From: Marsupella aquatica
Lineage: Eukaryota; Plantae; Marchantiophyta
Assembly (NCBI GenBank): GCA_973895155.1
Contig: OZ316892.1
Coordinates: 21,639,619-21,703,618 of the forward strand
Length of the DNA: 64,000 bases
Direction: 5' to 3'
This document shows positions 18,301 to 58,362 of this stretch, one piece after another. Within the stretch, counting starts at the first letter, position 1. Each line of letters opens with the position of its first letter. A program made the position numbers and the translations under genes. Under the pieces are notes generated by a model. It was not told where the DNA came from. It saw only the letters and a list, made by a program, of their open reading frames with translations, and ran no database searches.

Positions 18301-19463
18301 TTGCGCTGTGCCCCGGCTTGCCTCGCGCCCCGGCTCGCGCCCTCTAGCTCACGGCGCCCTCCCTATGCAAGGGGCTGGGTCTCCCGGCGCCACCTGGTTA
18401 CTCGCGGGACATGCTCGGCTCGCCCCATGCCAGGCCACTTTAAGGGGCATTTAATCCCTCCCGCAGCCTCCTTCATCGACGGCCTCCGTAGCGCTCTGCT
18501 ACCCCGGCCTCCTCACATAGTACTCACGGTGCCCCATAATGGGGAATTTTAATTCCCCCCCCCCCAAGGCTCTTTTTACAAGGGGGTCTCAACGATAGCT
18601 CAAGCAAAATGGTAAGTCCTATGGGGTTGGCCCTAGCGCTTTTTAAGGTCCCAAAATATTTTCCCGCTTAGGTCACCGCAAATCTTAGAACTGTTACGAG
18701 AGAAAGAATATAAAGTCACCCGGGGCATCATCAACCTACAATGGTGGAATTAACTAAAAAAAATTAAAAATGGCTTATTTACAGTGGCTATTAACAAGGC
18801 ACACCCCTCTGCAACCCATTATTTGTGGTTTCAAGTGACGGGGACCCCGTCACAATTAGGTCTTAGCTGTGGTCCTGACAGGAGACCCCCTCTTCTCATT
18901 TGCTACTGCTATTCTCTCCAGACTTGCTGATTTTGGTTTGTCTTGGTGACGGCTTCTTTTGTACCCCTTGGGTTCCCCCCCCCCCAAGGGGGGGTTGTCT
19001 TGTTTTGCCGTGTGGCTTGTTTGCCCTGCCCGTGGGGTTTTTCGTGGGCTAAAACTATTTATAAATAAAAAATCAATTCCAAGGAGTAGCGCCTGGCGCT
19101 ACTCCAAAAAAAGGTGTCACAGAATCCAAAACATCTAGGAGGTCGGGTAAGAACAAACTAATCCCCAAGACACTCGTTGTCATTGACATACAACTCGGTC
19201 TATACTAAACAAAGTCCGAGAAACAAATCCGACTAGTGAGTGTCATTGTGGAATAAAAGCTATGCAAGGTGACGATACCTCTTACAACTTTAAACTCCAG
19301 AATATGTAGAGATGTCGCGAACAGTGAATCAACTTAACAACTAAAAAGTTGTATCCTACAAACTGAACATCCCGAACAAACAAAATCCTATCTCCTTTGT
19401 TCTTAATAGCGATAGCGCCGAGCGCTATCTATCACGAGAGTGTGCAAAAAGACTTCCTAAAGA

Positions 19464-19934
19464 TCAGGATATCGACGATCCACACTCATCATCGAGTCTT
19501 GCATTGAACCGATCTTCATCTTGATGAAATCCATCCTCCCGCTTAGCAAAAAAACGCGGCCCTGGAAGGCGACTCCTAAGCTTGCAATTCGGTATGTTCG
19601 AATCAGAGAATCCAACTCGCCCAGTCCACTGTTGAATGTCCCTACAAAATTGCATCCTTCCAACCCCATAGTGATCAGAAGGGTCCGGATCGTGAATAGA
19701 GAAACGCTCTCAAAAATACCGGGGAGGCGATAAATGAGCAGAAGGAATAGATTTTGATCGGAAACTTATCCCCTCGTCGGAGGCTAGCCACAGTTGATTC
19801 CGCTCAGTCGATGTCTCAGAGTGAGTAGTATCTTCAATTGGGAAGTTCGGAAACAGATCACCATCCGATGCTTTGCCCTCAAACTTCACGAGGCGGGAAG
19901 TCCTCTCTTGTTTCACCTGCTTCCCTTTGTCCAT
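19464..19934 (-). pseudogene. ORF3 of Mutator-like copy 1 (156 codons, one internal stop), unknown function
   Basis: MDKGKQ...ETSTERN..DEGIS...PPRYF*ERFSIH...GRVGF. Same length as, and alignable to, 56730-57200. Confidence 0.6.
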
Positions 19935-20360
19935 GGTCACTACACGAATGACTTTTTGTCTCTCAAAGGACTTGACACCAAAAAGCGCAAATGGCAAAGG
20001 CCTCCAAGAGCTCCTACAAATTGTCGAAAGGAGAGGGACGAAAGGGGAGAGTCTAAATGAAATGACTAACGATGCAGTTTTGAGCAAGAGAAAAAGTTTC
20101 CGTTTCATCACGCATACAGAGAAAACGCCAGTCCATTGAGATCAATGAGTACCACAGGCAATGACATTACGGAAGGGAAACAAACACTTGTACGGGTACT
20201 TCCGTTGAATTAAGTATTTCAGTACATTTGTCCTCCTGAAAGAATATACGGAACATCATACATTGCCCACCTTGTCTTAATCCAGCTTCACGTCATATGA
20301 ATAATAAGTAGCGTCGGGTGCTACTATTTTGGAGGGGAGAATTGACCAAACGGTGAAACT

Positions 20361-20420
20361 CTAATCTAATCTAATCTAATCTAATCTAATCTAATCTAAT
20401 CTAATCTAATCTAAGCTAAT
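20361..20420. repeat. (CTAAT)n microsatellite just downstream of the ParB-MTase stop codon
   Basis: 10 perfect units at 20361-20410 plus degenerate units. Confidence 0.95.
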
Positions 20421-20425
20421 CAAAT

Positions 20426-23400
20426 TTAATCTGCACACTCTGACCCACTACTCTTCGATCTATCTGTAGACTCTGCTTCATCGTCTACAAATTCATTCCG
20501 TGCCATGTCGTCGACAAAAGGATGATGGATAAACTTCCGATCCGAACCTCGTCTCAATTGCAAGCCTTTATTCTCCCAAGTCAGGGTTCTCCTGCTCTCT
20601 TCTTTGTGAGCGGCATACTCGGCGTAGGAAGGCAATACAAATGGTTTCTCCGGGGTAATGAGAACCTTCCTTGAAAATTTCCTTCGTAGGTGAAACCTCT
20701 CGCAAACATTCCACTCGGACCTGCGAGTTGGTTAGAACACTAAGTACGTGGCTTTAATTGATGTGTCTAAAACAAAACAAAGAAAACAAATAGTAAAGTA
20801 ATGTGAAGGAGCTTACGGGCATTACTCTGAGGAATCTGAATCATCTATTTCTCCTTCTGCATTCCCCTCTTCCTTCTTCTCTTCTACATTATCTACATCT
20901 TCACCACCATCCACATCACCAACATCGGCTTCTTCTTCTTTGGAATCAAAATTCAGAACATAACAAACTTTGTCCTTAACTTTTTTCCCCTGGTCTTTGC
21001 TCGGACCAGCCTCATTCACTTCTTTGGGGAGAAGAAGATCAGAACGTCTTTTCAGCAATGGACACAAATTCCTTGCGATTTTCAATCCCAAGAATGAAAT
21101 GGCCACAGAAGTCACCCGCAACAAATGTGCTCCCAGAACCAACCGTCCAATCCATAACAATATCTCCCGGATGCGTAATTAACTCAAGGACAGACTGCAT
21201 GAAGCCGATAGGCAGACGAGCATTCCCAGCAAATGCACCTTCAGGAGAAGGATCATTCTTGAGACTTTGCAATCCAATGAGATTCGTGATTGAAGGGTCT
21301 TCAGTTACAGACAAAGGCTTGAACTTTACATCCTTTGGAACCCTGACTTTCGATGTAACCCGACTGAAGATGTCAAGTCTTAAGGTGAAAACCTGTGAAG
21401 TAAGTAAGAAAAATGAGATATATAACAAGGGACATGGGTAGCGCCTGGCGCTACCAAAAAACCAGACGAAAAATAAAGACTTTAACCCTAAACTCAATAT
21501 TGTGAAATTGAATATATGACTAGCGCCAAGCGCTAGCCAAAAAGGTAATCAATGATGAGGATAATTACCTGACAATCGCTTTTGGCCATGTACATTGGGA
21601 CGCCCATTACAACATTGAGTGTTTTTAGGCACTGGAACTTCTGGGACTCTTGGCTTGCGGAAATAACTTGGGAGATCTGGTCGTACTCCCCAGTGTGCAA
21701 AACTGCTAACAATCCATCATCGGCTAGAAATGGGTCCATGGCCCAAAAAAAGGAACCTACAATTTGGTGATCCGGGACATTCCACTTTGGCGACTTCCGG
21801 TGAAGCAAAGAAGGTCTTAGCCCCGTTGGTAAATACACAAACCCCGCATCTACCCCAAACGCTCTTAACTTCCCTCCCCTTACAACGCCTTTCTCGCGGA
21901 GACCAAGTGCCACTAAGTCTTTCCCCCACTTTTCAATAGTCATCACCCATGCGGGTTTGGTCTCATTTGTAAACACAGATTCAAAAAAGTCCATAACACT
22001 GGACTCAACAAACTTATGACGTCTAACCTTTGAATTGAATCGACCAACTTCTCGTTGGACCCCGGTGGACGCAATCGAACCAAGATCGTGGTTCTTCTTC
22101 TTCTTTTTCCTTGTGCTCGTGGCATCAATAGGACGAGATACGTTGGCATTGGTTGGAGGAGTTTGTTCTTCCGAGGCGTCAGCAGCCTCCGTGTTTGCTT
22201 CGGAGAGCTCTGGGGTGATGGTCGTCTTTGCATCTTGCGTTTCTTCTCCCTCTGATTTTCTTCCCCCTGTAAAAAGTATGAATAGAAATTAATTAAGGAA
22301 ACTATACCAGCGCCTGGCGCTAGCCATCCAGTGTATCCATAAATTGGAACAGAATTATGAGTATCTATCTAACATTTCAAAGTAGCGCTTGGCGCTAACC
22401 AAAACTATGAAAAAAACCAGAAGAACAATAAGTTGAACATCTTACGTTTTCTTCCAGATTGTGTCGACGGGCTATTCAATCCTGTATCCATTTTTACTTT
22501 CGCGCGTGGCTTTCGGCTTCGGTCAACATGTGTGACTTCTGTCTCGCAAATTTTTTGAAGCTCAACCGCTGAAGCTTCCACATCTCCCACTAAACCTTCC
22601 TTCATTTCTGACAGCAATTTGCAAGGAACTAGAGATTTGGACAATTTCAGAAAGGAGTCTTTCTCAAATTCATCAAAAGGTGTATCCCACTTATCAGTAT
22701 CAAGGTACCACAGACACTTTGCTCTCTCCCACTCAGAAAGGTCATGCAGAGGGTTGGTTCCATCTGTCAGATACATACAATAAACCTCGCTGAATGCATC
22801 CCCATCCATGACAGACCACTTCTGGAATGCAGGAGGGTAAGCCCAGAAGTATTCAGGCGAAACGCTCTCCATGGACATGAAGAACCGATAAAGATATCTC
22901 TTTGCCCCGCTTCTGGTTTCATGTAGTGAAATCTCTTTCTCCCCATACTTTGAAGCCCACATTGTGTTGAAGAACTTGGCCTTCACAATATCTCCGTAAA
23001 TTCTGAAATCATTACAAACGCTCTGGACCAAACCATCAAAAGTATCTACTCCTCCTGTCACAAGTTGTTCGGGAGGCATGATCGATTCAACTTGCCTGAG
23101 AGCAGTCTGCAACATCCCTATTGCAATTCCTTCTATCCAACTCCACATGTGCCATGTATGACACCATTGCTTCACAGGTTCGTCATTCACACTAGGTGGA
23201 TGGAAAAATTGTTTTCGAAGTTCAGGTGTGCAATGTGCCACAAGAAGAGTAGAACGCAACTTTGGATCCAAAGTGGAGACAGCAGTGAAGAGTCGAGCAC
23301 AATCCATTGTACAAACAACGGACTTTGCTTTCTGTTCCCGCTTGTTCTTTTCTGTAAGAGTGTACATTTCTGCACAAGTTGACAGAAAATCATTGAATTC

Positions 23401-24602
23401 AGGACTTAGGAGAGGAGTAATCTTTGAGGTCTTCACGCTCCATTCCTTCGTGGCCTCCTTCATCATCGCTGCGTGACGCTTAGCGACCTCCTCCTTTGAC
23501 CATGGCCTTCCTTGAGAGTTTGCGGTTGCCATGTCCATTTTGAACTGGAGAGAGTATGACTTGATCTTGTTCTCACACAAGATGTAAACAAGAGCCTCCA
23601 AAGGCATCTTCTTGGTATACCAAGCGCCTTTCCTTGTCTTCGCTTGAATCGCCTCGAATCGTTTGAAGCTTCCTGTGTCAATGATCGCCTTATAATAATC
23701 AAGGTCATGGGACAGAATTTGATTGATTCGATTTGCATCCAAGATCCATGATGATTCTACCACCGCTTGTCCCAATCTGAAACCAAACGGAAGTCATCAG
23801 CACCAGGCACTAGCCAAACATCGACAAAAATATTCATTCTTTTTGACATTCAATGAAAGAAAATGATGGAACTTACTGATTGACTGTGTGCATTGCAGCC
23901 TCAATCTCGATGAGAGAGCCTCGATCTCCCTTGAATACAGTGCAAAGCACACGAGGATGGTACTTGATATTTTTGGGGTTTTCATCCGTGATCTGTAACC
24001 AAGAATAGAGACGATGATTCCCGTCAAATACACAAAACATCTTGTCTTTTAAGACAAGAAACTCGGGATCCACTTCGCAATCCGCTTCAAATTTCTCATT
24101 CTGGGAAACCCATACAACATCCCAACTCTCACGAATTTTGGGTATGCAAAATTGGATAACCCCTTCAGAATCAGCGGGTTGCACATAGAACCGCATCCCT
24201 ATGGAGGAGTTGTAACCGGAACTCCGAAATGAATCTTTGAGCTTCTTGATCGAAGCACTCTCCTTCTGCAAAGTCTGAACGACTTCCATGTTGACTAAGC
24301 GGCAAAGCGGTATATGGGGGGGATTCTTAGGCTCTCCTCTGAAATCAGTCCCAAATGACATCGCATGTTTCGCAATCACATCACCCATCGACAGAGCCCC
24401 TTCGCTTCTGTCCTCCATCACGAAATCGCTGAAATTCTCCATGGCTCCTTGTTTCTGCAGATGAGTGCAAAGCACTGTAGACTATTTGCCCAATATGTCA
24501 AAGCGACTGCGATGCAGTTGAGCGTGTAACTCTCCAAGTGTAAACAGAACCAGAGAATGAAGTCTCGGATGTCTCAAAATTATCGGGAGAAGTATTGTCC
24601 AT
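20426..24602 (-). pseudogene. 5-exon ParB/Srx-like + helical region + N6A/N4C DNA-methyltransferase-like fusion gene (copy 1, a few lesions)
   Basis: VFDGNHRL near 24010-24030. VDAGFVYLPTGL (motif-IV position) near 21830. PFLADDGLLAVL and LITHPGDIVMDWTVGSGSTFVAG..GHFILGIE (motifs X/I/II) near 21080-21180. GT-AG introns at 23876-23777, 22445-22267, 21568-21393 and 20816-20721, all conserved in copy 2. Confidence 0.75.
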
Positions 24603-25316
24603 CTCTGGATAAAGAGTAGAAGGCGATAAGGTTTGGAATGTTCTTAGCCAATCGTAGAGGTCTGCAACGTTATCCTGCGACCGGATAGATGAGCTCCACG
24701 TCGCAAACAGACAACACGGAGCACGTTCTTTCCCGGAAGACAGAGAGGACAGCGAATCTCAAAACATGATCGGACCTGTCGAATTGGCCTTTCACATGTA
24801 AAAGATCCATCAAAGACCGTCGATCAACTTAAATATTTACTTTTCATGATGAAAAGAAACAGCAAAAAGAGCGACGACACCAATAAGAAAGAGACACATG
24901 TCACATGTTCTAAATGGTCATGATGAACAGAACCAAAATTATCTAAATGACGTCTCTAAATCTTTGCCACTTTAGGGATAAAATGGTCACTAAGATATGA
25001 AGTTACCATTATAAATATCCGTTGGGTCACAACAGCGGACAAGTCTGTATAATAGCGCCTGGCGCTATTATAGAAATTACACCTAAATCACCATTAAGTT
25101 TCATACATTTCCATAATCACGCTGGGAGATATTAAGGGCCCTTACCATAAAAATAAGCCCATAACATAATAGCGCCCGGTGCTATTATTAAATCATTTAT
25201 GAAATGTCATTTCATTCCCTAAATACAACAATGGTCGTAAATTTCTTCGCTTTTTTGACACGTAAATATGTATTATTAATGATAGCGCCAAGCGCTATCA
25301 ATGTTGTGGGTAAATA

Positions 25317-25629
25317 GGGGTATTTACAAACGACAGGAAACAGCAAACAATAACAAAAAAAACTGGTAATAGGAAAATGAGTGGTAATTTTTTTTGAATT
25401 TTTTTTTTTCAAATTTTTTTTTTTTGCTAGCGCCCGACGCTGGTAATGCTAGCGCCCAAAGCTAGCCAAAAAATGTTGTAACTTAGATTTTTTTGGAAAA
25501 TGAGACTTTTTAGAAAATATTTTGACATGATTATTTTTCCTGGTAACAGTAACTTTTTGCTGGTAACAAGAAAAATTTTCCTGGTACCAGTAAACCTGTT
25601 TCCTGTTTACTGTCACGCGTGCCATACCC
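25317..25629. mobile_element. 313-bp MITE of the same Mutator-like family, nested in the copy-1 intergenic region
   Basis: Ends GGGGTATTTACAAACGACAGGAAACAG and (reverse complement) GGGTATGGCACGCGTGACAG match the copy-2 termini. 9-bp TSD GGGTAAATA at 25308-25316 and 25630-25638. Contains two palindrome copies. Confidence 0.85.
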
Positions 25630-25938
25630 GGGTAAATATATCTCTCATCTCGTCATATTTTTGCGTTCATCTCCACCTATTGTGTGGCATGAAAAAAGAG
25701 ATTTTTGCTAGCGCTTGGCGCTACTAATATCCATTGCTGAAGATGCCGTTAAACTAACGGAAACATTTTGCTTCCAACGGTCATCCGCCGCCATTCTTTG
25801 GTCACTTTTCCGTGGCATCAACGGTAATTAAATTGGAATTCAAATTGTCATATGGTGGTTTCTTTGTTGAAGTTTCTTAGAAGCAGTGAAATAAGAAACT
25901 AAAACTATCACGACACTCTCATTTTACCATTGTGGTCA

Positions 25939-28900
25939 ATGATATTCCGCAATGCAGCATGTAATTAGAGTAAGTCGTCCGGCGATAGGTGAGGTGATTA
26001 CCGTACCTGTGACCAATCGACCAGGTACTCAATGCGTTAGTGAGAATTATCTTTCCGCAAGATTTGATGTCTGGAGGAAGGATATTGATAATTGACAGCT
26101 CATTTCCATTACAGTCAAGGAGAGAAATTTTGGGAGTTGCATATTGGTGTCGATTACTCTCTATACCTCAAAGGAAAAGATGATGTTCGTGTTAAATTAG
26201 AGAAGGTAATTGCACCGAGGGAAGTCATCGATCTCACATCTGAAGGCGAGGACTCATTCCTTGGATCTCCTTTTTTGATGAATGTTGGAAACATTAAGAG
26301 AGAAGAATCGGTTCCAGTACATCAGGGGAGCTCGTCGAAGGAACGGGTTCCTCCTTTTTTTCCATGATTGAACAAAACAATTAGTGGATCTGATACACTT
26401 CTTTTAGCTTTGCCTCTAACTGTCGTCTATAGGCAAAGCGCGTTAGATGCACTTTTGAAATCATATGGACAAAGTGAGCTTTCTCGCTTTGTTAAATCGG
26501 AGGTTTCACGCACGAGCAAGTGGAATTGCTTCCCATAAGTTATAATGGCAATGTCATATTTGAGCTTCCACCTGTTGATTGTGTTGGTTCAAAAGGAAAG
26601 CGTCTCCTTAACATGGACCGGTCAAAGGATTGCTATCTATGGACTAGAATTTTCCCCACTTCAGCCAATGTCTTACCCTAAGAAGATGTGGGAGTTTGGC
26701 AAGGTTAGTTGTAGCGGGTCACTAGAATGTCGGAACAATTCATGCGAGTTTTATATCAGAACCAATGGTAGGAATTGTTCATCTTGGGAAGGGACCCCTA
26801 AGTTAGGAGGTCAACATTGTCCAGGAAAGTTGATTGATGCAGGAGGGATTGTTTGTCGTTATTGTCTGCAGCTCCCATTTTTTCTGGACTCTTGCCCCAC
26901 AAAAATGTTCTACATGTACCCGCAAGTCATGCTTGATTCGGTGACAGTGCAACATATGTCACGCCTCGCAATCCACATGGGTGTACATGATCATCCATGT
27001 CGAAAGATTTGGTCTAGAAGTTCAGAGAAAATAGCGGTCGAGGAGATTCGAAAAGAGCACTTGAAGAATCCTTCTTCCGCGCCTTGTGTTGTGAAAAATG
27101 CAGTGACTGGATCTTTGAAGGATGCACTAGATGAATCTGTTCATGACATTTCAAAGATGGAAGAGACTGAGATTTGGCAGTCACTTATGCTTGTTTCCAC
27201 TCCACAGAAATTCTCTGCCTTGTTTAAGAGCGTCCGGAAAGATCAGGCTGGTCGTGGAGATCTTGAATATCTGGTTCGAATGCAAAAGAATGTGAGGTTT
27301 CCATTTGTTCAAAGGTATCTTCTTCCGGGGCAAGGCTGCAAGGAGGACCGTGCTCATATTTTCAAAATGACAATCAAAGGTCATGGATCCGGAGTCAATC
27401 TACTTCGACAGATGAAAAAAGGTGGGCCACTTGAAGGAGCATGGGTGAGTTTTGATGTCATGCATCGAATGTCTAAAGAATGGAGCACTTTCAGTGCCCA
27501 CGTCTATGACCACAACTATCGAGCATTATGTACGATATTTACGTGCGAGCTGAAAGCGAAGGACACTGAATCTCTTGAGAAAGTTTGGAGATTGATGATT
27601 GAGGTCGCTTTAGAAAATGGGTTACATGATGTTCAAATTCACGGATTCATGGCTGACAATGCTCATGCGGGATGGCTTGCGGTGAGAAATGTTTTCTTTG
27701 GGGGCCATCCAAATCCAGAGAAGGAGAGATCAGACGCTTTTCATTTTTACCAATCTTTGCATTGCCATTCCATCGAAGGAGTGTTGGAAGACAAACGTGC
27801 AGAGCATCGAACCCTTTGGGATAAGCTCAGAAATGCATCAACTTTTGTTGAAGCCTATAGAATCTCCAGAGAGATTGATTTATGGTGGAGATCCGGAAAT
27901 TGCGTTCCTGGAAAGCTTTGGATGCTGCAAGGATTGATCTCTTGGTGGGTTGTAAGATGGCGACAGTGGGGAAATTTTATCAGACTTGTGAGTATGACAT
28001 TGACATGGCCTTTTCATTTTTCAATATCTCATATACTTCTAAACTAGCGCCGAGTGCTCGTTCCTAGTTCGAGAACGGATGTTGATTTGTGCCATATTGA
28101 TCTTCTCAGGAAAATTATCAACATTGATTCTCAAATCAAAAGGAGTAGGGCTGGAGGCCACGCTTTGGTCTCGTGAGAGGATTACAACACCCTGTTCTTC
28201 AAGGAAACTTATCTCCAAGTTTGACAGATTTGTTCCTTTCAGTATTGGCAAGGACACTAGATAAGGAGGCAGGTTTGCTATACCTCGACGCGGGCGACTC
28301 TTCTACCAATTGCCGTTGGGGCAGAACCACACAAACTCTGCATGAGGTTCTCCTCTGAATAGGCGATGTGCTTTGACAACAACTTCGATGACACCAGCAT
28401 TGGAAGGATATCCAACCTTCTTAATCCGATTTTGACACTCATCACAATCGCATCTCCCTGACAATGTCCCGTTACACTATGGGCCGGGCCCAAGTCTTGA
28501 AATTCGACAAAGATGCCAAGAACCGGGATCAACGTCCATCTCCAAAAGCGACGTGTCAGGGACGACTGGATTTTGGTTAAAAGAGACTTCTGGTAATATT
28601 GAAGATGCTCCACCTCGACCAGAAGGAGGTGCATCCTGCATGTCACCCGGGTCTTCTTCACTCCCAGTCAAATCGATCGGTGTTTCAGGAGTTCTAAGTG
28701 GAATATGAGAAAACTGAGTAGAGCTCAGATTTCTCCGTTTCAAACCCCGTGTATTTGGTGTTGTTATCAGAATTGTGACAGATTTGGTTACAAAATCACC
28801 GTTCAATGGAGAACTCCTCTCCAAATCGAATTCCGCCGCATTAGCTAGTAGAAAATTAGAAGCCTCTTTGAACAATCGAGGGGACCCAGCCTGATCTGCA

Positions 28901-29574
28901 GAACGGAAAGCTAGTTCAAAAACCGTAGGACCTGTACCTCTATGTAACCCATCACGATAGGCAGTATAGGCGGCAATTTGGGAGATTGCTCGATTGTGGT
29001 TAGTTTTGCACCCCTCAAATAAACCTACAGTTTTCTTCCCTTGCCAAGCTTTCATGATACCATGAACTGCCTCAGATCCTGTGCAATTGGGAATCATCCC
29101 TCCTTCTTGTGCACTTTTGCTCTGTAGGACGGCGAGGGTCCGTCTCGAACTAGGAACGGACGCCCAATGAACCCCAGATCAAATCTTACTCAGGAATATC
29201 ATAGAAGGATTGAATCTGCTGCTAAGGAAATGATGACTCTCATCACAGAATTGGACGTCTCCTTAGGGAACTCTTATGGGAAACGATTCCGCATCCAAAC
29301 ACACGCTCATTTGAGGACGGCAAACACTTACTGAGTGCAGATTTGCATATTCTCATGCTGCTCTTGTGAGGATTTGTTTCGTCGGCATTCTCAAGGAAGA
29401 CCTTTCATGCCTTGTAAGCATTTGTACTGGGTTTACAAAACGGTCTTTAAGCTAGATCCATTGGATTCGATGTTACCAAGCCAACCAATTCTTACTATCA
29501 GTGAACTCCAGTACATCTTAGGAATGAAGAATAGCATGGTTTTTAGGAATTCTGACCATTCTAGTAGACGTTGA
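25939..29574 (+). pseudogene. GCM-like Zn domain / MULE-type DDE / SWIM transposase (copy 1), frameshifted, exon 2 partly inverted
   Basis: C..SLEC..NSC...CRYC...C...HMGVHDHP (GCM/WRKY-like). SFDVMH, FMADNAHAGWLAVRNVF, DAFHFYQ and NCTGSEAVHG (MULE D-D-xxH-E pattern). CSCEDLF...PCKHLYWV (SWIM). Confidence 0.8.
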
Positions 29575-29835
29575 ACGGGTATTTAGTCAATGATGTTTTG
29601 TAACGGTAACAAACGTTTGGGTAGCGCTCGGCGCTAGTAAACGTGTCTTCCGACAATTGTTGTTTTTCCCATCATATTGGACTTCATGTTGAAATTGACC
29701 TCATTGGTTTTGTAGAGAATTGTGCCGTGTTTTGTGGATGATAGTACCAATTCTCCTGTTTTGTTCCACTCTTTTTCCTGTTATGATCATTATTGTTTCC
29801 TGTTTCCTGTCATGGAGGTTGGGCCCTTCAATCGG

Positions 29836-31170: not shown

Positions 31171-32062
31171 TTGTGTTGTGTACCGATTTAGTTGTCAGTT
31201 GGTACATTATGCTCCTAGACATCACCGACAGACTCGAGAGCACCGATAGTAACGATCTTCGTTCTGATTGCGACTCGTATTGGATCCAGGTACCACGAAC
31301 GAAAATTTTGTGCTACAATCAGAATTTCATTCTACCGTGGGGCTCAGTGTAAGTACTCCTGGACCCCATCAACACCTCGTGAACCTCCGTCATTGCTTGT
31401 TGGAAATGTGATATTACTCTAGACAGGGGGTTTAATTCGGTGGCGGCATCTAGGCCTGTCGGGACGCTTGATTGAGAGGATTTTCTTTGCTTTCGTTCAT
31501 GCTGCCATCTCAATGTACAAAGTCAGTGTTTGTGCCGATGTGGCTCTGGCGTCAGGGTATCTGAGGAGTTTTTCCAGCTTTGGTCCCATTTCTTCTCTGC
31601 ATCTTCTTCTTCGTTTATTCTTCTGCTGCTGTTCATTCCTGGATATTGCCATCTCACATTGGTACCTGCTACATTGACAAGAACCTCTGTTTTTCTCTGG
31701 CGATTGTAGTTAGGGTATCAGACAAGTTTCGCAAGCTTCCGTTTTGTTTCTTCCGCTTCTTCTCCGTCCGTAGGCTTTGGGTGCTTGTCACTTGTACTAC
31801 AGTTGTTGTCATTTAATTGCTAGGTTCTGTCCTGGATTTTGAAGGGAGATTCCGAGTCATTTCTCTAATTCGTCTTCGTCCATTGGTTTGTTAAATTTGG
31901 TTGCTTCGCTGATTAGCTGATTAACGTTGTAGCTCTTTGACCATCGTTTTTATCCTGGGATCGCATATGGTACAGGCGAGGAAAAGAATCATCGTTCCCA
32001 GCATTTCCAGAATTTGATGATCAGACGACTGAAGTAGGCGAAGACGACCATTCCGACCATCT

Positions 32063-47811: not shown

Positions 47812-48069
47812 GGAGACCCGAGCCAGCAGAGCAGCCCCGAGTCTCCCCCACCAGATGTCGCTCCCCCGAGCTTTGACGGCATAAAACAAACGGCGCAGGA
47901 ATTTCAGGAGCAAATCAGGGAGGAAGAGGAGGCAGCCCTGGCTAGGGAAAAGGATTTACCAGGAGGAGAATGGCCAGAGGACATCAGGCGGCTTGCAGAA
48001 AAACGAAGCATCCCTCCAGCCACAATAGAAGGAATCCGCAAGGCGGCTTGGGAGCACAAGCCACGGTGG

Positions 48070-49482
48070 ATGATGCCGATGACTTCTACTTCCTCCACCT
48101 ATGCTAAAAATAGAGCCATGGAGTACGGGGAAATGTGTGGAGAGCTGGCGCTCAGCATCTTTGGGGAAGAGTTGGAGCAAGGACCCTTTTTTCAGAGGGA
48201 GATGTTGGAGAAGCACCAATTAGAAGAAGCAGTGGCTTTGGAAAGAACCAAGAAGGACGAGGTCATCCGTCGGCTCAAGGCAAGGGAAGCTGAAATCAAA
48301 GACCTGAGGGCGGCCAAGAAAGCCCAAGATGAGCTACGGATTAAGCGGCATGAGCTAAATATCATGCAGGGCCAATTGGATACCGCACAGTCTGATAATC
48401 GGATTATCGAGAATAAATTGACTCGAACCCAAGAAGAGTTGGCCGATGCGATCAAGGAGCGGGAGAAGTGGAAGCGAGAGCTGAGGGATGCAGAGGAGGC
48501 CCACATAACAGCCAACAACCGGGCCAGGGCGGAGACCCAGAGAAGGGAAAGGGCATTGAAGGAGGAGCTCGAGGTTATCCGCGGAGCCCTTGAGAAGGAG
48601 GCCGAGTTAGGGAAATCCTATCAAGGGATTATTGCGCTGCAGCAGGAGCTTGCATCCCTGACGGCCAGCTTCAAGGCCGACCTGCGTGAGAAGGACAATA
48701 TGCTCGATCAGACTTACGCCAAGATGAACCAGATGGAGTCTGTCATCATTGCAGAGCTCGACAAGGAGTTAAGAGCGACCCGGGAGGAGAGAGCTGCATT
48801 TAAACAGGAATTGGAGGAAGCCCAAAAGGAGCTGGAGGAGGCGGGCAAGGACCTGGACGAAGTGCAAGAAGAGTTGGAGGAAAGCACGCGGAAGCTAGAG
48901 AACTTACAACGACGAGCCGACAACCAAACGGAGCGGCTGAAGAAACAAGCCGCAGTATTTAAGTGCTTGGCTTCATCAGGGCCAACTCAAATTGAGGCCA
49001 CTAAGTTACCAGGAGTGGTACTGGCCGAAGGACAAGCCGCGCCATTTGCACTAGTGCCGGAAGTAAGTGGGAAGGGGAAGGGGCTAGCTGTCGAACCAGA
49101 AAAGAAGAAGAAGCGGAAACCTTCAGGGTCAGGGAGTAATACGGCTCCACAGACCGTGGTGACCAAGGAGGTAAACCCAGCACCGACCTCAGGCAGGGTT
49201 ACGGCAGAGGATCCAACTACCCTAGAAGAAGGGGATGACAAAGCCGAGGCCAGGATACTCGGTAATGAAGCCGAGGTACCCAATCCGCCACTTGAGTGTG
49301 CAAGGGAGGCCGTAGCCGAGGCTGATGTTGAAGCCGATGCCGTTGCCGGGGGTGGACCCAGTCAGGCCGATGGAGAGTTGACTCAGTCAAGGGCAGGTAA
49401 TCTGTCAGAGAACGAACCTACGGCAGTGGCTGAGGTGGAAGCATTGGGGGCATCCACTGAGGAACAGCCACCGCTGCCATGA
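48070..49482 (+). CDS. Long coiled-coil protein with acidic tail, possibly the C-terminal part of the preceding ORF
   Basis: 470-aa ORF, E/K/R/L-rich heptads, with a KKKKRK basic patch. Confidence 0.55.
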   Translation: MMPMTSTSSTYAKNRAMEYGEMCGELALSIFGEELEQGPFFQREMLEKHQLEEAVALERTKKDEVIRRLKAREAEIKDLRAAKKAQDELRIKRHELNIMQGQLDTAQSDNRIIENKLTRTQEELADAIKEREKWKRELRDAEEAHITANNRARAETQRRERALKEELEVIRGALEKEAELGKSYQGIIALQQELASLTASFKADLREKDNMLDQTYAKMNQMESVIIAELDKELRATREERAAFKQELEEAQKELEEAGKDLDEVQEELEESTRKLENLQRRADNQTERLKKQAAVFKCLASSGPTQIEATKLPGVVLAEGQAAPFALVPEVSGKGKGLAVEPEKKKKRKPSGSGSNTAPQTVVTKEVNPAPTSGRVTAEDPTTLEEGDDKAEARILGNEAEVPNPPLECAREAVAEADVEADAVAGGGPSQADGELTQSRAGNLSENEPTAVAEVEALGASTEEQPPLP

Positions 49483-51732
49483 CGGTGGTGGAGGGCCGCT
49501 CCTTTCAAGGAGGGCAGACGTGGAGGGAGGAGGCGTGAGTGGGCAGGGCGGGCTCAGATCTCTAAGTTTAGGATTAGGATCAGGACTAGGAGGCGGCCCT
49601 GACACTTAGCTTAGTGGGATTGCGGTTCCACTGGTAAGAGCAACACTTGTACTCCTGCCTCGCTGTACATAGGTAGATTCAGTTAGGTAGATTTAAGCTT
49701 ACGCTGCAAGGAATTAGGCGGATCCACTACCAGGATAAGTACCTGGGCAGCAGGGAGCTCAGGGCCTCTTCTTTAGCAAGTTTTTAGTTGCACCAGCCGG
49801 GCTGGGATCAAGTAGTCAGAGAAGCTCTCGGTTAGTCATACAGTGATCCTTGTGTATATTCATGTTTCCTCATGCCTAAGAGCTGAATAGAGTTGGCCTC
49901 ACGGCTTAGTTCGCAGAGCTTGTGTATAAGATATACTGTTTGTATGGCAAGTGCATGGTATGACTCAGTCAGAAGGAGTCATTTTGCTATTTGTGTGTCG
50001 CATTAACTTGTGTGAAGAGTGCCCACATCAACTAATAGAGGAAGGAAAGTAAGCAAGAGAGTGAGAGTTGGATGTGTCGAGCTGAGAGAGGTCTTAGCGG
50101 CTTAACCAAGCCTATTGGGGATCATTCCGGCGGCGGAATCCAAATATACCTAACAAGACGGAGGGGAAGACAAGGGAAGGCCTAGATTAGGCCGGCTACG
50201 TATCTCATGACCCGATGAAGGATCTGTCCAGTATATGTGTGTAAAATGTTAATAGTAGTAGTAGAAGGAGGTTAGCAGCGTCCCATGCCGCTAAGCCGCG
50301 GAAACGGCCTCGCCAAGCGCAAAACCCGCAGGAATCGGCTTGTGAAGGGGGGTTTCTGGGGTTTAGGGAGCCATGGGACGCACCACAGTAGCCACCGGCT
50401 CATCCTTAGTTAACAAAAGCGGGAACCGGAACTTTGTATTGCGATGGAGGAGTGGGTCCAACATCACCATCTTCACTGTCAGATATGTCAACAACAACAA
50501 CAGGAATGTTCCCAACTGCTGGTTTCGGAGCAACACGTCTGACATTAAGCGTGTAACTAAGCCCGACATTCATATGCCAAAAGCGTACTCCCTCATCTAC
50601 ATTGAATGCCGCAGCCCGTTGAAGTTCTCCACTCGTCGATTCCTGCGGAATAATGGATTCAATATCATTCATCCTCAAATCAAATCTCCCGCAAAGGTAG
50701 GTTTCACTAACTTGCTTGTAAGCATCAAAAACTTGCACAGGGATCTTGACGACGTCTCCAGTACAAGCACGTGTAATTACAATTGAGCGAGACATTGTGG
50801 AGAAAATGAAGGAATCAACAAAGCGAATTCCTCCCAAATGGAATGCTTATACTAATGCGTGAAGACGACTGACCGTTATAAAAGTCGTTTAAATACGACA
50901 TAGAATTGTGTCCGTTGAAATCATAAATGTAGAGTTTGTCCTTTTTGCCCCGGTAAGTGCGGGTGTCAAGGATATTTATTGTGTCAAAATGATTACATAT
51001 AGGCCAAGGTAATTCACATGATTTCAGCAGCGCTTGGCGCTACCAAAAATTCCAGCATTTATAAGGTTAGAATTCAGTCACACACCAGACTAGCGCCGGG
51101 CGCTAGCATTGCGGTGGACACCAATAAGTCTTCCTTTTTGTATCTAAAAAACCAATATCGTCCAAATTTAAGCACAATTCAGGGACATATGTACTAGCGT
51201 CGGGTGCTAGTATTGGAACACCATATTTAAGGACCAAATGTGAACGAAATTAAACTTCCTATGCCTAAAGTTCTTCATTTTCAAAAAATTTCACATAAAC
51301 TGGGACCAAAAACAGAACCGTGAATAGCCCACGGAATGGGTAGCGCCGGGCGCTATCTATTGAACACATTTCACTTTATGACCAATGTGGGTAAAGTTTT
51401 ACTAGCGCCCGGCGCTAGCAATGCATTGCCAAGTTTCAGTAGTATGGTCAACGGTAATATTTAACGGTAACTACGGTTAGCGTGATCTTCACAAAAATAG
51501 TTTAGCGGATTTTACATTAATATTTGTCATAGTTCTTAGATTGTCGCTTTGTTTTAACGATAAGTACTACCCAATTTCATCGTAACGTCTCTTAAATAGA
51601 TTGCATGGAGGGAGATAGCACTGATCAATCGGGTATAATACTCCATCAACTGTTAATTTGGTACGGAGATTCAGTACTCGATCGTGAGATTTGTAGTGTA
51701 CGACTATTCGTACAACCCTCATTGCGAGAGAC

Positions 51733-54700
51733 GATGGATGCAGTCCCCTCCTTGTCGAGGGGGTCTAGTGTTGTTGGGGATCATGATCGTGGCTATTGCA
51801 AGTCTTCTAAGTCTTCATTTTCAGGTTCAGTGTATACACGTCGAGTGACAAGGTCAAGCGCATCGCTTGTTCCCATCTCAAGTAATTCGTTTCCAAAGCC
51901 GACACGAAAAAAGATGGAGAATGTTGACACATTTGCAATCGGAGATGTCTCGTTCTCGGAGACCGACCTTATTTTGAAACATGTCCTGTTCTTTGGGAAG
52001 GATTTCCGAGGGTTTAACAGAGCCTCCTAGGATTCCGCTATGTCGGTTGGTGCACATGGAGGTCATCCGCACTTTGCAGAAAGATAGCTCCTCCATTGAC
52101 AAGTTGAAAGATTCTTTTTGTAGTATGGGATACAATTTGTCGATAGGAAATGAGGTTTTATGTTCAACCGACGGACGCTGACGGTGTGACGCTCACTTGC
52201 ACACAGGAAATTTGTGATAGTTGGGATCCAATATGGATATCCAAAAACAAAAAGTTCGAGGAAGAATATGCGGCAGACCCCGATTTTCTTGTTCTGAAGG
52301 ATAAGATGTTCTCAGTTTTTGACGGGAACCATCGGTTGTACTCCTAGATGCTTGTCACTAAGGAAAATCCAAAAAACACAAAATACCACCCACGAGTGCT
52401 CTGTACTGTCTTCAATGGGGACAAGGGTTCACTGATTGAAATTGAAGCGGCGATGCACACCATGAACCAGTAAGTTTGTCTTTTTAGCATATCTTGGAGA
52501 GGAATTGTTTTATGAGCGCCCGACGCTGCTTAAATGTTTTTCTAATTGCTTTCTTTTCCTTCAGGCTTGGACAAGCCATGGTCAAACCGTCATGGATCCT
52601 TGACGCAGATCGAATCAAGAGGATTTTGATTCACAACCTGGAGTACTATAGTAAGCTCATCGACCCTGCAAATTATAAGAAGTTTGAGAAGATCAGGCTG
52701 AAGACGTGGAAAGGATCCTGGTACACGAAGAAGATGCCTCAAGAGGCTCTTGTGTATATTCTATGTGAGAATAAGATTAAATCATATTCTAACCAGTTCA
52801 AGCTTGACATGGAGTCCGCTGCGGCCCTAGGTACCCCTTGGTCGGCCGAGGAGGTTTCCACAAGGCATGCCATAATGATGAAGGAGGCCACCAAGGAGTG
52901 GGCAGTGAAAACATCAAAAATCACTCCTTTGTTGAGTCCAAATTTGAGGACTTTCTGTCTATGTGCGCAGAAATGTATGTTGTGACAGAGAGAAATAAGT
53001 GAGAGAAGAAACCAGATACCATCTTGTGTACGATGGACCAAGCCTGGAGGCTTTTTACTGCTGTTTCTGCACTCGACCCCAAGCTCAAGAGTACTTTGCT
53101 TGTCGCCCATTGCAATCCTGAGCTCCGAAGGCAATACTTCCATCCAAACAGCGTCAATGATGATCCAGTAAAATAGTGGTGTCATACCTGGATTACGTGG
53201 AACAATGTAGAGGGGATTGTAGTGGGGATGTTACAGTGTGCTTTGAGAGAGGTCCAACAAATCATTCCCAAGAATCGCTTGCAAGCTTGGGCATGTGAAT
53301 CTTTTGAAGCTCTCATTGATATAGTTACTAATGATTTCAAGAGATATGGAGACTTGGTGAAGAGTAAGTTTTTTAATACAATGTGGCCTTCAAAGTATCC
53401 GCACAAAGAGGACTACTCTTTGAAGAACCAGAAGCGAGCAAAAAGGTACCTCTACCAATTTTACATCCACATGGAAGTAACTAGACCTGATTACTTCTGG
53501 GCATATCCCGTCGCTTTTCAGAAGTGGACAGTAATATCAGCATGTGACAATTTATGTGATTTGTACTCTATGTACCCCGCGGAGGGAATTTTCCCAGCGA
53601 GACCTTTAAGTGAATGGGAGAGAACCCACTATCCATGGTACCTAGATACAGACAGATGGGACTCGCCCTTTGATCACCGAGAAAAGGATGCTTTCCACAA
53701 GCTCTCTAAGTCCCAGATACCAGTCAGTATTGTTTCTGACATGAAGCTGCATGGACTAGCGGACAATGTAGATAAGTCCACAACAGAATTGCAAATGAAC
53801 TGTGAGACGACAGTTGTTCACGTTGACCGAAGCCGAAAGCCTCGCGCAAAAGGGAAAGTTGATACTGCTGTCCCAAGTGAATCAACAAGGTCCGGGAAAA
53901 AATGTAAGTATAATTTTTAGTTCTTTGGTTAGCGCCTGGCGCTGCTATGCCATTCAATATATGTTAGATTGCATTTGTCTCATTTGTTCCATAAATAGAT
54001 ATATTTCCTTCCATCTCTTCAAGAAAGTTTGGCCAGCGCTGGGCGTTAGTATACTTTGCATTTTTCATACGCTCAAAATCTAACATCGCCTTCCATTTGA
54101 TCAGGGAGAAAGTCAGACGCCATCGGCAGTGGCGATACAAAGATAGATGCCACCCCAGAGGCATCTGAAGCCAATACAGGGCCTCCATCTGACCCACTTA
54201 CACCCGTCGAGAAAGGGAAGTCAATTGCTCCAGTAGATGCGGTCAGTACTAGAAAGAAGCAAAAAAGGGCAATTGAAGGTGGATCCTCCTCCGCTCGGGA
54301 AAGTGCGGCTGCAACGGGTGTTCAACGTGAAGTTGGTGACTTCAAAAACACTCTTTCAAGGCATTGCATGGTTGAGTCTAGCATCTCAGAATTCTATGAC
54401 ACAACGTTCAACAAAGAGGAGAAGCCTGACTGGGTAAATGGTGTAGAGAAATGGGCAAAGGACCTCATGAAGTCGGGATATCGAGACAAGGGAATTGTCT
54501 ATGGGGGGAAGGAAAGATCCCTTGGAGTACACGCGGGATTCATTTACCTTCCTACGGGTCTGAAACCATCACTGCTAGACAGAAAAGTCCCAAAATGGAA
54601 TACCCCTGACCACACACTGGTAACATCATTCTTTTGTGGAATGGACCCATTTTTATCAGATGACGGAATGCTAGCAGTTTTGCATAATGGGGAGTACGAT

Positions 54701-55875
54701 CCTATGTCTCAGGTTATATCCGCATGTCAGGAATCGAAGAAGTTTCATTGCATCTCCACACACAATGTTGTTATGTCAGTTCCTATGTACGCGCCGAAGA
54801 CTGACTGACAGGTAAATTCCAAGACATGATCTCTATTTTTTACACTCAAAAATGTGTATGAATGCAAGGAATGACATATCATTCTTGGTTTATCTCGCAG
54901 ATATTCACGCTCAGGCTAGACATCTTTTGCCGAGTATCTCAGAAAGGGAAAGTACCCAAGGACTTGAGGTTTAGACCTCTGTCTATTACAGAAGATCCCT
55001 CCATCACTAATTTAATTGGGCTTCCAACTCTCAATATAGATCCAACACCTGAGATGGAATTCGCAGGGAATGCCCGTTTGTCGGTTGGATTCATGCAGTC
55101 TGTGATAGAGCTCATCACTCGGCCTCGGGATATTTTCATAGATTGGACAGTTGGTTCAGGTAGCTCTTTCGTAGCTGGAGACTATTCTCGGAGGTTTGTA
55201 GTTGGACTGGAGAATCGGAAGGATTTTGTTGAAACTGGTTCCAAGGTGTTCTTAAATCTACTCTCTTCTAAGGAAGTAGAAACCTTGCCTCCCCCAATTC
55301 AACCACCAGAAAAGAAAAAGAGGGACAACTCCGGTCTGTACTTAATTTTGACTCCGATGATGAGTCAAGTGGGGGGACAGCAGATGAAGTGGACGGGGAG
55401 ACAACTCAGGGGGGGTAAGGAGCAATCTGCTGGCGAGAGTGATAGCGATCACTCTTCTGAGTAATGTTCTGAAACTCGTAAGCTTCTTTCTCTTTTCCAG
55501 CTCCTTCATGCATTTTGTGCTATTGATTGTATCTTTCAATCGGTTGTCTTACTTGGTTATCTACCTAGGTCCGAATGGAATACCAAAAAGCGCTTCCAAC
55601 TCAGAAGAAAAGTTGCACGTTTTGAAATGGATACACCAGAGAAACCATTTGTTTTGCCGTCTTACGTTGAGAACACTGCAAGAAAGGAGGATAGTCAAAG
55701 GACTTTGTGTTGGGAAAACAAAGGTCTCCACCTTCAAAGAGGAGTTGACAGAAAGTTTGTTAGAAACCCGTATGTAGATGATGTTTCTAAGAGCAAGTAT
55801 GTCGATGATGAAGCAGTATCTACGGACAGATCACAGAGCTCTGAATCGGAAACTCAATCAGAAACCGATAATTGA
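51733..55875 (+). pseudogene. 5-exon ParB/Srx-like + DNA-methyltransferase-like fusion gene (copy 2) with several frameshifts and stops
   Basis: VFDGNHRL at 52315-52338, VHAGFIYLPTGL near 54530-54563, LITRPRDIFIDWTVGSGSSFVAG..RRFVVGLE near 55110-55213. Introns at 52470-52564, 53904-54104, 54812-54900 and 55478-55568 match copy 1. Start codon is approximate. Confidence 0.75.
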
Positions 55876-56565
55876 TGTATATTTCTTTTCCAACTTTTAC
55901 TAGCGTCGGGCGCTGTTATGAAAGGACATATATTTCATTTCATATGCTCATAATAAAATTCTAAAAACCACTTGTTGTCTTCAGTAGCGCCGGGCGCTGT
56001 TATCTCGGGGGGGTCACTATATGAAGGGTCATACATCACGTGCGATGGTTTGGGTCATTTATGACCCCCCTAAGTCACTTTCTAGAAAGTTGTACGGCAC
56101 CAATCATGTGATGACACGTATGCATTTTGCAATTAAACAACCCTATATTTCCATAGAAGACTTAATAAGTCTTCCGCCAAAACCATTTAAATGGCCCTAT
56201 ACTTTGTCGCACATGATATGCCACTTCCATGGAAGTGACCCCCCCGAGGCTGTTATCGAGATACATGTATTTCTTGTATAAAAGGTTTTAAATTGGTCTC
56301 TTCCTTTAGTAGCATCGGGCGCTCCCCAAATGTGCACGTTTTTCTTCGAACATTTACATCATAATATTGTTCATGCGTTCTATTGCCATCCTGTCGCCAT
56401 TCGTATATTGTCGTTATGTAATTAAGTCGGGTCTATTTCAAAATAATCGTATCGTGATTAGACTGTTGACTCAACGGTCCTCTACCCGTTGAAGCTCGCA
56501 TGTTATGGGTGTCCACCGATCACCGTCCTTTGGTAGTCACTATATCAACCTTTTGGAGTTACTAG

Positions 56566-56728
56566 GTCGATAAAGGTGCTGACCTTGTCGATAAAGGTGT
56601 GGACATTGTCGATAAAGGTGCAGACATTGTCGATCTGGTTGCGCACTTTAAGGCAAGGTGAGAACGTTGTCGAGCTGGGTGCGGACCTTAAGGCCAGGTG
56701 CGGACGTTGTCAAGCTGTGTGCGGACCA
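56566..56728 (+). repeat. Degenerating 19-21-bp tandem repeat (GTCGATAAAGGTG.GGAC.TT) upstream of ORF3
   Basis: About 8 units visible. Confidence 0.8.
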
Positions 56729-56729
56729 C

Positions 56730-57200
56730 ATGGAGAGGAAGGAACCAATGTCGTTGGACGAGATGCTTGCTTTCTTTAGTCCTTCCCGAGTTCGACCGGT
56801 GGAGAGCCACTTCAGCTCCTTCGAATCAGTTTGTGTCGACACTAAGACCGAGACATCGACTTTTTGGAACCGTAATTCTCTTCCTTATGACGAGGCGATT
56901 AGTCTTGGGGAGAGAAATATTCCGTGGATTGGCGACCGACAGACTCCACGCAAATTTGCGGATCGGTTCTCGTTTCATGAAGTCGTTCCTGCTGATGGTT
57001 AGCAGCCCATTGAACGTCGGGTGCAAGAGCGATTGGGGCGCATCGACTTCCTTAATGCAAATTTTCCGGGCCCCGGCCAAGCTCATGCTGAGCATCAAGT
57101 TCCCTCTTCAAATTATATTCGGCTCAGGGGTTTTGGATTCAAGAGAAACTACAAGCGGGCGAGGGCGGGAGTCGATGATGACTATCAATCACAGAGCTAA
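56730..57200 (+). pseudogene. ORF3 of Mutator-like copy 2 (156 codons, one internal stop)
   Basis: MERKEPM...ETSTFWN..DEAIS..IP...PRKFADRFSFH...G*..GRIDF. Homologous to 19464-19934. Confidence 0.6.
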
Positions 57201-58362
57201 AGGTGTTCCAATCGCAGGCGCTTAGGTTATTTTGGAGTGCATCCCTATGGCGATTAGGTTTCTAGGCAGTGATATTTACGCTAGCGCCGAGCGCTGCTAA
57301 AGCTGGATGCTTTCCATCTATGTTTTTCAGTACTGAATGTTTTGTTAGGATTTGGTCATCTGGGTAATCTGTTTTTGCCCATTTTGATAGGAAATGCTTT
57401 TTGGATCGACCCATTTTCCTCTCCATGGCGTTACACATGGAAGGGCGGGATGATTTGTAGTTTTAAGCTAGCGTCGGGCGCTACTTATACTCATTGCTTT
57501 CCGTCGCCCATGTAATCTTGGTGATATGTTTTTGCCCATTTTTGAAGTAAATGAATTTTGGATCGGCTCAATCTCCAATGTCTGGTTTTCCTCTCAATGT
57601 CGTTAAACATGGATTTTGGGATTTTGAGGTTTAAGCTAGCAACGAGATCCAGATATTGTTGTTGTATGACCCTGCCTCTGTTGATTTGAATTGCCTCATT
57701 TTCAGCCGCTCATTGTCTTCTCGATTGGGGTTACTTAGATTTTCGTTGACTTTTCCCTTCTTCTATGAAACCCTACAACCTTTCCATTCGCTTCATTGAT
57801 ACCAACGCTGGGTATTGGTAATCATCGCAAATTTGGGTCGGACTACCTGACGGGATATTTCCTCAGGAATGAGACGGTTTTAATGAAAATGACTCAAATG
57901 GGCTTTAATTTTGATTGTTTGGAATCCTTTTTTTGGTCCGATGTTTTTGGTTTTTACCTCCAATTCTCCTGGTAACGGTAACTGTTTCCTATTACTGTTA
58001 CTGTTTCTTGGTTCTTGCCTTTTGTAAATACCCCAAAAATGAGGTTTGGCTCGATTTCTGAGGTGCTGTTATTGCCCATAATGCTCTTGTAACAGGACCT
58101 TAATATATTTAGAGGTGTAAGAGATGTTTACTTTTATTAACTTTAGTAAAGTGAGGAGAATCTTCTGAACTAATGATCCAAATCTTGAGTGTGCATTCTT
58201 CCCAAATAATCTTTCAAAATTTACAAAAGGAAATTGTAAAGGGCAGTAAGTAGAGGGTAAAATCCATCCTTTCTTGGGGATTCGAGGCCACTTTGCTTAA
58301 GAGGAGATGGATTATCAAGCTTTAAATTGAGGTATTGTATGGTGCAAGCAACTAGGAGTATG

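Follow-up and report, generated by a model that had tools for sequence, protein, structure and literature searches.

Dispersed palindromes in a two-gene Mutator-like transposon of the liverwort Marsupella aquatica: candidate self-recognition sites for a ParB-like passenger protein

Introduction

The system described here is a two-gene Mutator-like transposon of the liverwort Marsupella aquatica, of which two full copies and one short derivative lie in a 64,000-nucleotide stretch of contig OZ316892.1 (assembly GCA_973895155.1, positions 21,639,619 to 21,703,618; the whole stretch is referred to below as the window), and which carries, apart from its transposase, a second gene, the passenger, and 33 short palindromes dispersed through its non-coding DNA. 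Accessory proteins thought to recognize the element that encodes them have been described before. In Ectocarpus, the transposon Sola1-1_Ec32 carries opposite its transposase a gene for a 1,104-residue protein that joins a ParB-like part to an N4C/N6A methyltransferase, and its authors propose that such accessory proteins bind and modify their own element (PMC12477816). The passenger is of similar size, combines ParB-like and methyltransferase-like parts and likewise lies opposite the transposase; it differs in belonging to a land-plant Mutator element, in having lost the catalytic motif, and in being accompanied by dispersed and phased palindromes, the string 'palindrom' being absent from the main text of PMC12477816. 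ParB-plus-methyltransferase accessory proteins have thus already been reported from algal transposons, together with the proposal of self-binding. The passages on these algal elements name no dispersed site and report no test of self-binding, and the present locus, which offers a 25-bp candidate site with a subfamily variant, a rule for the spacing of sites, and homologues present in many copies in a liverwort that has been sequenced, makes the idea directly testable.

A second counterpart is PAG3 of the Bostrychia Plavaka elements, an accessory gene with N-terminal ParB homology for which inverted repeats were proposed as binding sites (bioRxiv 10.1101/2025.02.11.637652). The passenger is similarly a ParB-like accessory protein with candidate palindromic sites; however, the repeats of PAG3 are described as tandem arrays beside the gene and its partner domain as a 2-oxoglutarate oxygenase, whereas here single sites are spread over introns, promoter, and 3′ regions, and the partner domain is methyltransferase-like. 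A third is VANC21, which binds motifs in the introns, intergenic DNA, and terminal non-coding DNA of its own Mutator-like element (PMC5735166), and protects VANDAL from silencing (PMC5735166; PMC10398659). Both cases present a Mutator-like element, an accessory protein, and a family-specific short motif enriched in non-coding DNA, which in VANDAL can also be shared by non-autonomous elements; the VANC motifs, however, are of 9 bp, in one orientation, and evolve as tandem repeats (PMC5735166; PMC10398659), unlike the isolated palindromes of 15–25 bp found here outside tandem repeats. No match indicating homology between VANC and the passenger appeared in the Pfam scan, no direct comparison having been made.

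With the bacterial systems ParB/parS, Noc/NBS, and KorB the locus shares a predicted ParB N-terminal fold and dispersed palindromes of similar length, while it departs from bacterial ParB in its eukaryotic gene with introns, a DGNHR instead of a GxRR motif, a C-terminal methyltransferase-like domain, and the absence of a ParA gene from the element. A prokaryote-type beta-class amino-methyltransferase fold is also known in liverworts from Marchantia MpDN4MT1a/b, host N4-cytosine methyltransferases with an intact TSPPY motif and shown activity (bioRxiv 10.1101/2021.02.12.428880); the passenger, in contrast, lacks a TSPPY-type motif, and 'ParB' does not occur in the text of that preprint. Other eukaryotic methylases linked to ParB are listed in PMC4738411. 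Within the literature searched, a scope without Iyer et al. (2011) and the supplements, land-plant Mutator elements were nowhere described as carrying dispersed, phased palindromes, and the loss of the catalytic motif was not reported either.

The palindromes and their distribution

The original prediction had counted about 33 copies of a 15-bp palindrome, and all 33 were recovered at their listed starts: each fits TAGCGCCNGGCGCTA with at most three mismatches (7 exactly, 18 with at most one and 27 with at most two), while 100 dinucleotide shuffles gave a mean of 0.01 matches at one mismatch, against the 18 real ones. The extended arms quoted at 19083-19105 and 25048-25072 were also correct. 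The length, on the other hand, had been underestimated, as the core is present at every start but the conserved motif reaches 25 bp, with A/T-rich flanks, a free position 8, a tolerant centre, a purine at -9 and a pyrimidine at +9 in 33/33 sites, and outer triplets, AGC and GCT, that are nearly fixed and centred ten bases apart. When the window was scored with a 25-bp symmetric weight matrix, the 33 sites obtained 16.3–35.1 (leave-one-out minimum 13.7) and the next position only 5.7 (57803), a clean gap to the background; a matrix built from copy 1 and the short derivative only was sufficient to place all 17 sites of copy 2 in the top ranks of 30001-64000. Departures within the core are one-sided (30/30 at positions 1–5, with none mirrored), no compensatory change was found there, and spacers of 0, 2, 3, 4, or 5 bases are not enriched in the window. 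A three-mismatch match at 30068, outside the top 48 matrix scores, was rejected as background. Position 57803 could be a decayed 34th site; it lies 334 bp (~32.0 turns) from 57469.

The distribution of the sites agrees with the earlier claim that they are confined to the non-coding DNA of the family and avoid exons, nested transposable elements, and host genes. With coding limits set by the analyst from open reading frames (ORFs) and tblastx, and with splicing inferred from DNA, 33/33 fall within the 8,569 non-coding bases of the element (38% of it; P about 1e-14), and none in its 14,218 coding bases or in the 41,214 bases of the window outside it. The sites divide equally among introns (11), the DNA separating the divergent genes together with the short derivative (11), and the DNA downstream of genes (11). 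In the nine introns tabulated, a site is 21–64 nt from whichever splice site is closer; three of these introns, one in the copy-1 passenger and two in the copy-2 passenger, have none. The introns, the bidirectional promoter, and the subterminal DNA are occupied, as had been noted, but some introns are empty and the terminal repeats are free of sites, the nearest being 111 bp inside in the derivative and about 190–550 bp inside in the full copies.

The possibility that an independent micro-repeat had spread in this DNA was considered within the window, where the sites have no common flanks (identity across 528 site pairs at the shuffle level, 0.312 vs. 0.309), no excess of target-duplication-like repeats beside them (3/33 vs. 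2.9 expected), and no place inside any of 35 tandem-repeat rows. The copies and sites are as follows, MITE standing for miniature inverted-repeat transposable element.

3096..29826: copy 1 of the Mutator-like element, passenger on the minus and transposase on the plus strand, with 9-base identical flanks at 3087-3095 and 29827-29835
25317..25629: MITE, a 313-bp non-autonomous derivative with the family ends, a 9-bp target duplication, and two palindromes
41647..58034: copy 2, transposase on the minus and passenger on the plus strand, with 9-bp identical flanks at 41638-41646 and 58035-58043
19087..20323: palindromes downstream of the copy-1 passenger (19087, 19413, 20309)
21439..23812: palindromes in copy-1 passenger introns (21439 and 21521 in intron 3; 22308 and 22383 in intron 2; 23798 in intron 1)
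25053..25723: palindromes between the divergent genes of copy 1 (25053, 25170, 25283, 25709)
25428 and 25450: palindromes of the MITE
28045: palindrome in a copy-1 transposase intron, abutting an inversion breakpoint
29622 (to 29636): palindrome downstream of the copy-1 transposase
42125 and 42237: palindromes downstream of the copy-2 transposase
43917 and 44020: palindromes in a copy-2 transposase intron (43872-44082)
51028..51417: five palindromes between the divergent genes of copy 2 (51028, 51091, 51195, 51341, 51403), spaced by 63, 104, 146, and 62 bp
52514, 53930, and 54034: palindromes in copy-2 passenger introns
55901..57483: palindromes downstream of the copy-2 passenger (55901, 55985, 56310, 57282, 57469)

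Helical spacing of neighbouring sites

The phasing set consisted of 17 neighbour intervals of no more than 400 bp, in which the two intervals at the MITE junctions had been replaced by the MITE-removed interval, entered as 103 (a second determination gives 104). In a scan of 8–25 bp the intervals up to 400 bp peak at 10.45 bp, with 16/17 within 0.25 turn at 10.4–10.5 bp (p=1.4e-4); for all 23 pairs the best period is 10.44 (p=1 of 4000 when any period of 8–14 bp is allowed), and copy 2 by itself is phased with p about 0.001. The 12 intervals of 400–3000 bp show no phase. Whole-turn spacing reflects the geometry of duplex DNA; it would favour proteins bound on one face of the helix.

The passenger protein

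The passenger, transcribed divergently from the transposase, would encode a protein of about 1,150 residues. Many homologues of it occur in Riccia, and liverworts (Calypogeia fissa, Riccia sorocarpa) are the source of the named relatives found for the two element proteins. Its exons were drawn from GT..AG junctions and from the homology between the copies.

20426..24442, minus strand: passenger gene of copy 1, with a putative coding region of five exons whose frame is broken beyond residue ~982
24442-23877: ParB-like exon
23776-22446: helical exon
22266-21569 and 21392-20825: methyltransferase-like exons
20720-20426: last exon
51800..55875, plus strand: copy-2 passenger gene, with the same four introns and in-frame stops

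The N-terminus is predicted to have a ParB fold. In the model of the homologue P0055 (79-row alignment; mean predicted local distance difference test score 61.5, high over about 310–650), residues of about 140–305 gave as the top three of 48,161 chains KorB (Z 6.1, root-mean-square deviation (rmsd) 2.8, 97 aligned), PadC (5.6), and pNOB8 ParB (5.3), all of them middling scores, and a second structural comparison put DNA-bound Noc first (Z 7.1, rmsd 7.0, 202 aligned; model residues 146–519); as to a helix-turn-helix that would read the palindrome, the Noc-NBS alignment reaches no better than rmsd 7.0, and no such domain was recovered in the 48,161-chain search. PHROG gave a ParB-like match to the copy-1 passenger (E=0.045), and the language-model neighbours are DUF3723 and ParB_N, of which the former is known as a conserved cargo gene of Starships, without an assigned function (PMC9156397). 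Foldseek by itself returned no match with E<0.1 for the P0055 model, and no ParB domain was detected in the passenger by the Pfam, NCBIfam, and PDB sequence searches. The CTP-binding motif of the CTP-clamp ParB proteins is GxRR; the nucleotide motif of the window exon and of most homologues is not GxRR but DGNHR, which we take to be nearer to the sulfiredoxin/SerK/DndB types. No ParA-like ORF was seen in the element.

The C-terminal domain matches Pfam N6_N4_Mtase (E=6e-08) and the profiles of DpnA and CcrM (E about 1e-4), and its motif order, with the S-adenosylmethionine-binding motif I at the C-terminal side, fits a beta-class N4C/N6A methyltransferase. The catalytic motif IV, (D/N/S)PP(Y/F/W), is nevertheless replaced by YLPTG in both window copies and by D(L/M)(P/S)(S/T) in 23 liverwort homologues (picked by pattern), and a DPPY-type string is absent from all 151 proteins retrieved, so that an active methyltransferase finds no support. 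Since the domain remains under purifying selection, it probably has some other role, as a non-canonical or dead enzyme, which is a warning that this methyltransferase-like part may be no enzyme.

As to the remaining parts, no relatives of greater length turned up for the middle exon, and its DUF6589 match from an atlas search, at low recognition, was treated as noise. The last exon (20426-20720 / 55569-55875) is 65% identical between the copies and ends in an acidic FVDDEA-type stretch, kept in the Riccia homologues, which one might speculate to be a docking motif for a host protein.

Divergence and the record of CpG

Between copy 1 and copy 2 the synonymous sites are saturated (pS 0.77–0.98) and every domain is conserved (dN 0.17–0.38). 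Despite this divergence, two sites of intron 2 occupy corresponding positions in the two copies; in intron 1 a site has turned over, and intron 3 of copy 2 is shorter and lacks the two copy-1 sites. A metagenome scan yielded from 136 candidates one relative, contig L001, with a transposase 60% identical, and none in 53 viral contigs. In the same transposase intron L001 has three palindromes of the same half-site without the central base, and at 1172-1231 a near-perfect 60-bp palindrome surrounds one copy of the motif, which points to inverted duplication as a way in which such sites may originate or undergo repair.

With the sites masked, CpG/GpC is 751/819 (0.92) in the element, 655/1116 (0.59, p=3e-10) in other repeats, and 277/407 (0.68, p=0.0015) in host-gene DNA; in L001 it is 93/101. 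At codon junctions the observed/expected CpG ratio of the element is 0.64, as compared with 0.14–0.51 in ORFs of long interspersed nuclear elements (LINEs), CACTA, and copia. There is no clean gradient of CpG/GpC with distance from the sites (0.81, 1.02, 0.92, 0.96, 0.76). This record modestly and indirectly fits a partial escape of the element from CG methylation.

A proposal of self-recognition

Selection maintains the palindromes as cis-elements of this Mutator-like transposon with its two genes. That they are binding sites for a dimeric protein encoded by the element, as originally predicted, is the reading best supported by their two-fold symmetry, nearly fixed outer triplets, and phasing, by the absence of a micro-repeat signature, and by the predicted ParB fold and GCM-like domain of the two element proteins; an active methyltransferase is not supported. 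As for which protein and for what purpose, we lean, with slightly more confidence than doubt, toward the idea that the palindromes would be self-recognition sites of the passenger protein, serving an anti-silencing function like that of VANC, probably without DNA methylation.

If we accept this proposal, passenger dimers would dock on the double-stranded sites and contact each other, cooperatively or by looping, across in-phase neighbours exposed on one face of the helix; from there the protein would spread between sites across the exons, which cannot hold a site. The sites would accordingly sit wherever coding allows, and the passenger would cover the whole element as a mark of self, a coverage that would shield it from host silencing instead of methylating its DNA, and from which the MITE, by keeping two sites, could profit in trans. 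If both binding and anti-silencing were true, this would be a second, independently built solution to the problem that VANC solves, and possibly a programmable epigenetic tool.

A more ambitious version, which we put forward only tentatively and expect to be wrong in at least some part, would be a self-marking system resembling ParB/parS: the passenger would load at the phased intronic palindromes, a nucleotide switch would spread it, the altered methyltransferase domain would shield cytosines from host methylation or read marks, site and protein would co-diverge by subfamily (0 vs. 1 bp spacer), and transposons of unrelated superfamilies, in different eukaryotes, would have taken up the module as a general means against silencing.

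Several observations weigh against this proposal: (i) the phasing test is post hoc, and copy 1 by itself falls short of significance (p about 0.36, n=6); (ii) in L001 the central base is missing, whereby the half-sites are rotated, and of its intervals, one of 84 bp is in phase and one of 90 bp out of phase; (iii) the transposase has a sequence-specific GCM-like domain of its own, as judged from a model (E=0.027); (iv) the codon-junction ratio of 0.64 equals that of a nested insertion (0.62) and is under that of a host gene (0.93); (v) the arms outrun the core more than those of shuffled partners (sum 38 vs. 19.4, p=0.006), and one L001 site has arms of 30 bp; (vi) departures on the transcribed strand favour G-U-compatible changes, 13:4 in introns (p=0.025) and 22:8 over introns plus downstream sites, as against 6:5 between genes; (vii) position 8 covaries, being complementary in 19/34 where 10.3 were expected (p=0.002, one of 19 positions tested). 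The arm extension, the covariation, the G-U bias, and the L001 spacer keep a hairpin role alive.

Alternative explanations

The alternative that survives best, though we think it unlikely, is that the transposase binds the palindromes through its GCM-like domain, either for the assembly or compaction of a transpososome or to activate transcription of the element. The model of the transposase homologue P0002 finds its best fold matches in the ISCth4 transposase (E=4e-4 and 7e-4) and, more weakly, resembles the DNA-bound GCM domain; the AtMu1 transposase alone is described as binding its cognate copies and causing hypomethylation and activation (bioRxiv 10.64898/2026.08.24.746577); the 313-bp MITE retains two sites; and helical phasing would suit any cooperative DNA-binding protein. 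However, the peaks of AtMu1 lie at terminal repeats (bioRxiv 10.64898/2026.08.24.746577), whereas the palindromes here avoid the termini, which carry instead a different short repeat at the usual place for a transposase.

It is improbable, to a greater degree, that the palindromes act as hairpins in the pre-mRNA, for splicing, export, or small-RNA control, or as single-stranded or cruciform DNA. To the position-8 complementarity, the arm extension with the long L001 arms, and the G-U bias of transcribed sites can be added the varying spacer length between subfamilies and the inversion breakpoint that adjoins site 28045. A hairpin, however, needs neither a single fixed sequence nor a spacing of whole DNA turns; the fixed purine at -9 is not preferentially paired (15/34 vs. 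16.6), the core shows no compensatory change, 11 sites lie between divergent genes (MITE included), and 50900-58100 has no Rfam match. Moreover, the G-U bias may stem from T-rich introns (40% T) or strand-biased deamination, and template switching at palindromes could lengthen the arms without any function.

We regard as very improbable a role of the sites in attracting a transcription factor or chromatin factor of the host, or in nucleosome positioning: the GC-rich core, the A/T-rich flanks, and the 10.4-bp period would also suit a rotational nucleosome setting, but no site occurs in 41 kb of host genes and other repeats, and a subfamily-specific spacer suits better an element protein that co-evolves with it. 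Finally, a micro-repeat or excision footprint accumulating neutrally in non-coding DNA is largely refuted, for although sites have been gained and lost between the copies and the long L001 arms suggest birth by inverted duplication, the flanks and duplication-like repeats are at the level of chance, no site belongs to a tandem repeat or lies outside the family, and the score gap leaves no decayed intermediates.

The element and its surroundings

The element belongs to the Mutator superfamily, with an IS256/Mutator-like transposase and 9-bp target-site duplications at copy 1, copy 2, and the MITE. The D, D, and DAFH motifs of the transposase are conserved (IS256/Mutator DDE with C/DxxH), Pfam gave no match to it, and the SWIM-like label of its end is one that we presume from the Cys/His pattern. 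Both full copies are broken by stops and frameshifts.

25943..29535, plus strand: copy-1 transposase gene, with a GCM-like zinc domain, DDE core, and SWIM-like end, frameshifted
42351..50846, minus strand: copy-2 transposase gene, with stops and frameshifts, split by an insertion of about 45700-50400

An inversion within the last copy-1 transposase exon covers about 28060-29165; some 19 bases are repeated at its two ends in inverted orientation, and the left breakpoint directly adjoins palindrome 28045. There is also an extra N-terminal beta-rich domain (25943-26092 / 50655-50804); the fold matches of the homologue model include UBX/ubiquitin-like chains. For the copy-2 transposase region, contigs from four runs, belonging to three studies, supply many diverged records, their depth not being equivalent to copy number; at 44024, where the window differs from the consensus, the contigs of all four runs mostly carry the consensus base.

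Copy 1 begins not near 19 kb but, by its flank and end matches, at about 3096: 3097-3147 has 67% identity over 51 nt to the matching end of copy 2, and the flank match extends to 13 bases, so the exact left end is uncertain by a few bases. The termini are short, imperfect, and G-started, with small internal repeats; long terminal inverted repeats (TIRs) were not seen in them, and Mutator-like elements without TIRs exist. Near all termini (25533-25614, 29754-29812, 41661-41726, 57962-58034) there are short ACAGGAAAC / GGTAACAG-type repeats, a second class of motif and candidate transposase sites.

Between about 3270 and 19000, LINE-like and CACTA-like DNA is nested in copy 1. The former label is a reading of the ORF, which has no Pfam match; the latter DNA matches Pfam Transposase_21 and DUF4218, its CACTA termini not being found, and a SET-domain ORF (10362-11306, minus strand; Pfam E=8.5e-06) adjoins its transposase. 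The 4.7-kb insertion at about 45700-50400, which interrupts the copy-2 transposase gene, contains no palindrome, and neither a target duplication nor a long terminal repeat was found for it; it has two long ORFs (568 and 556 codons) without a Pfam match, and little CpG depletion. There is no conservation between a third ORF, at 19457-19762, and 56692-57222. In both copies the DNA that follows the passenger gene has repeats without palindromes, namely tandem repeats of 21 bp and 40 bp in copy 2 (56566-56727) and a TCTAA microsatellite in copy 1 (20360-20432). Between the copies lie two host genes, an intronless carboxylesterase/thioesterase (32033-32716) and a YTH-domain gene (about 35300-36841), and the region is flanked by three related copies of another repeat (1028-1911 and 58364-60479), 70–90% identical and including one inverted pair.

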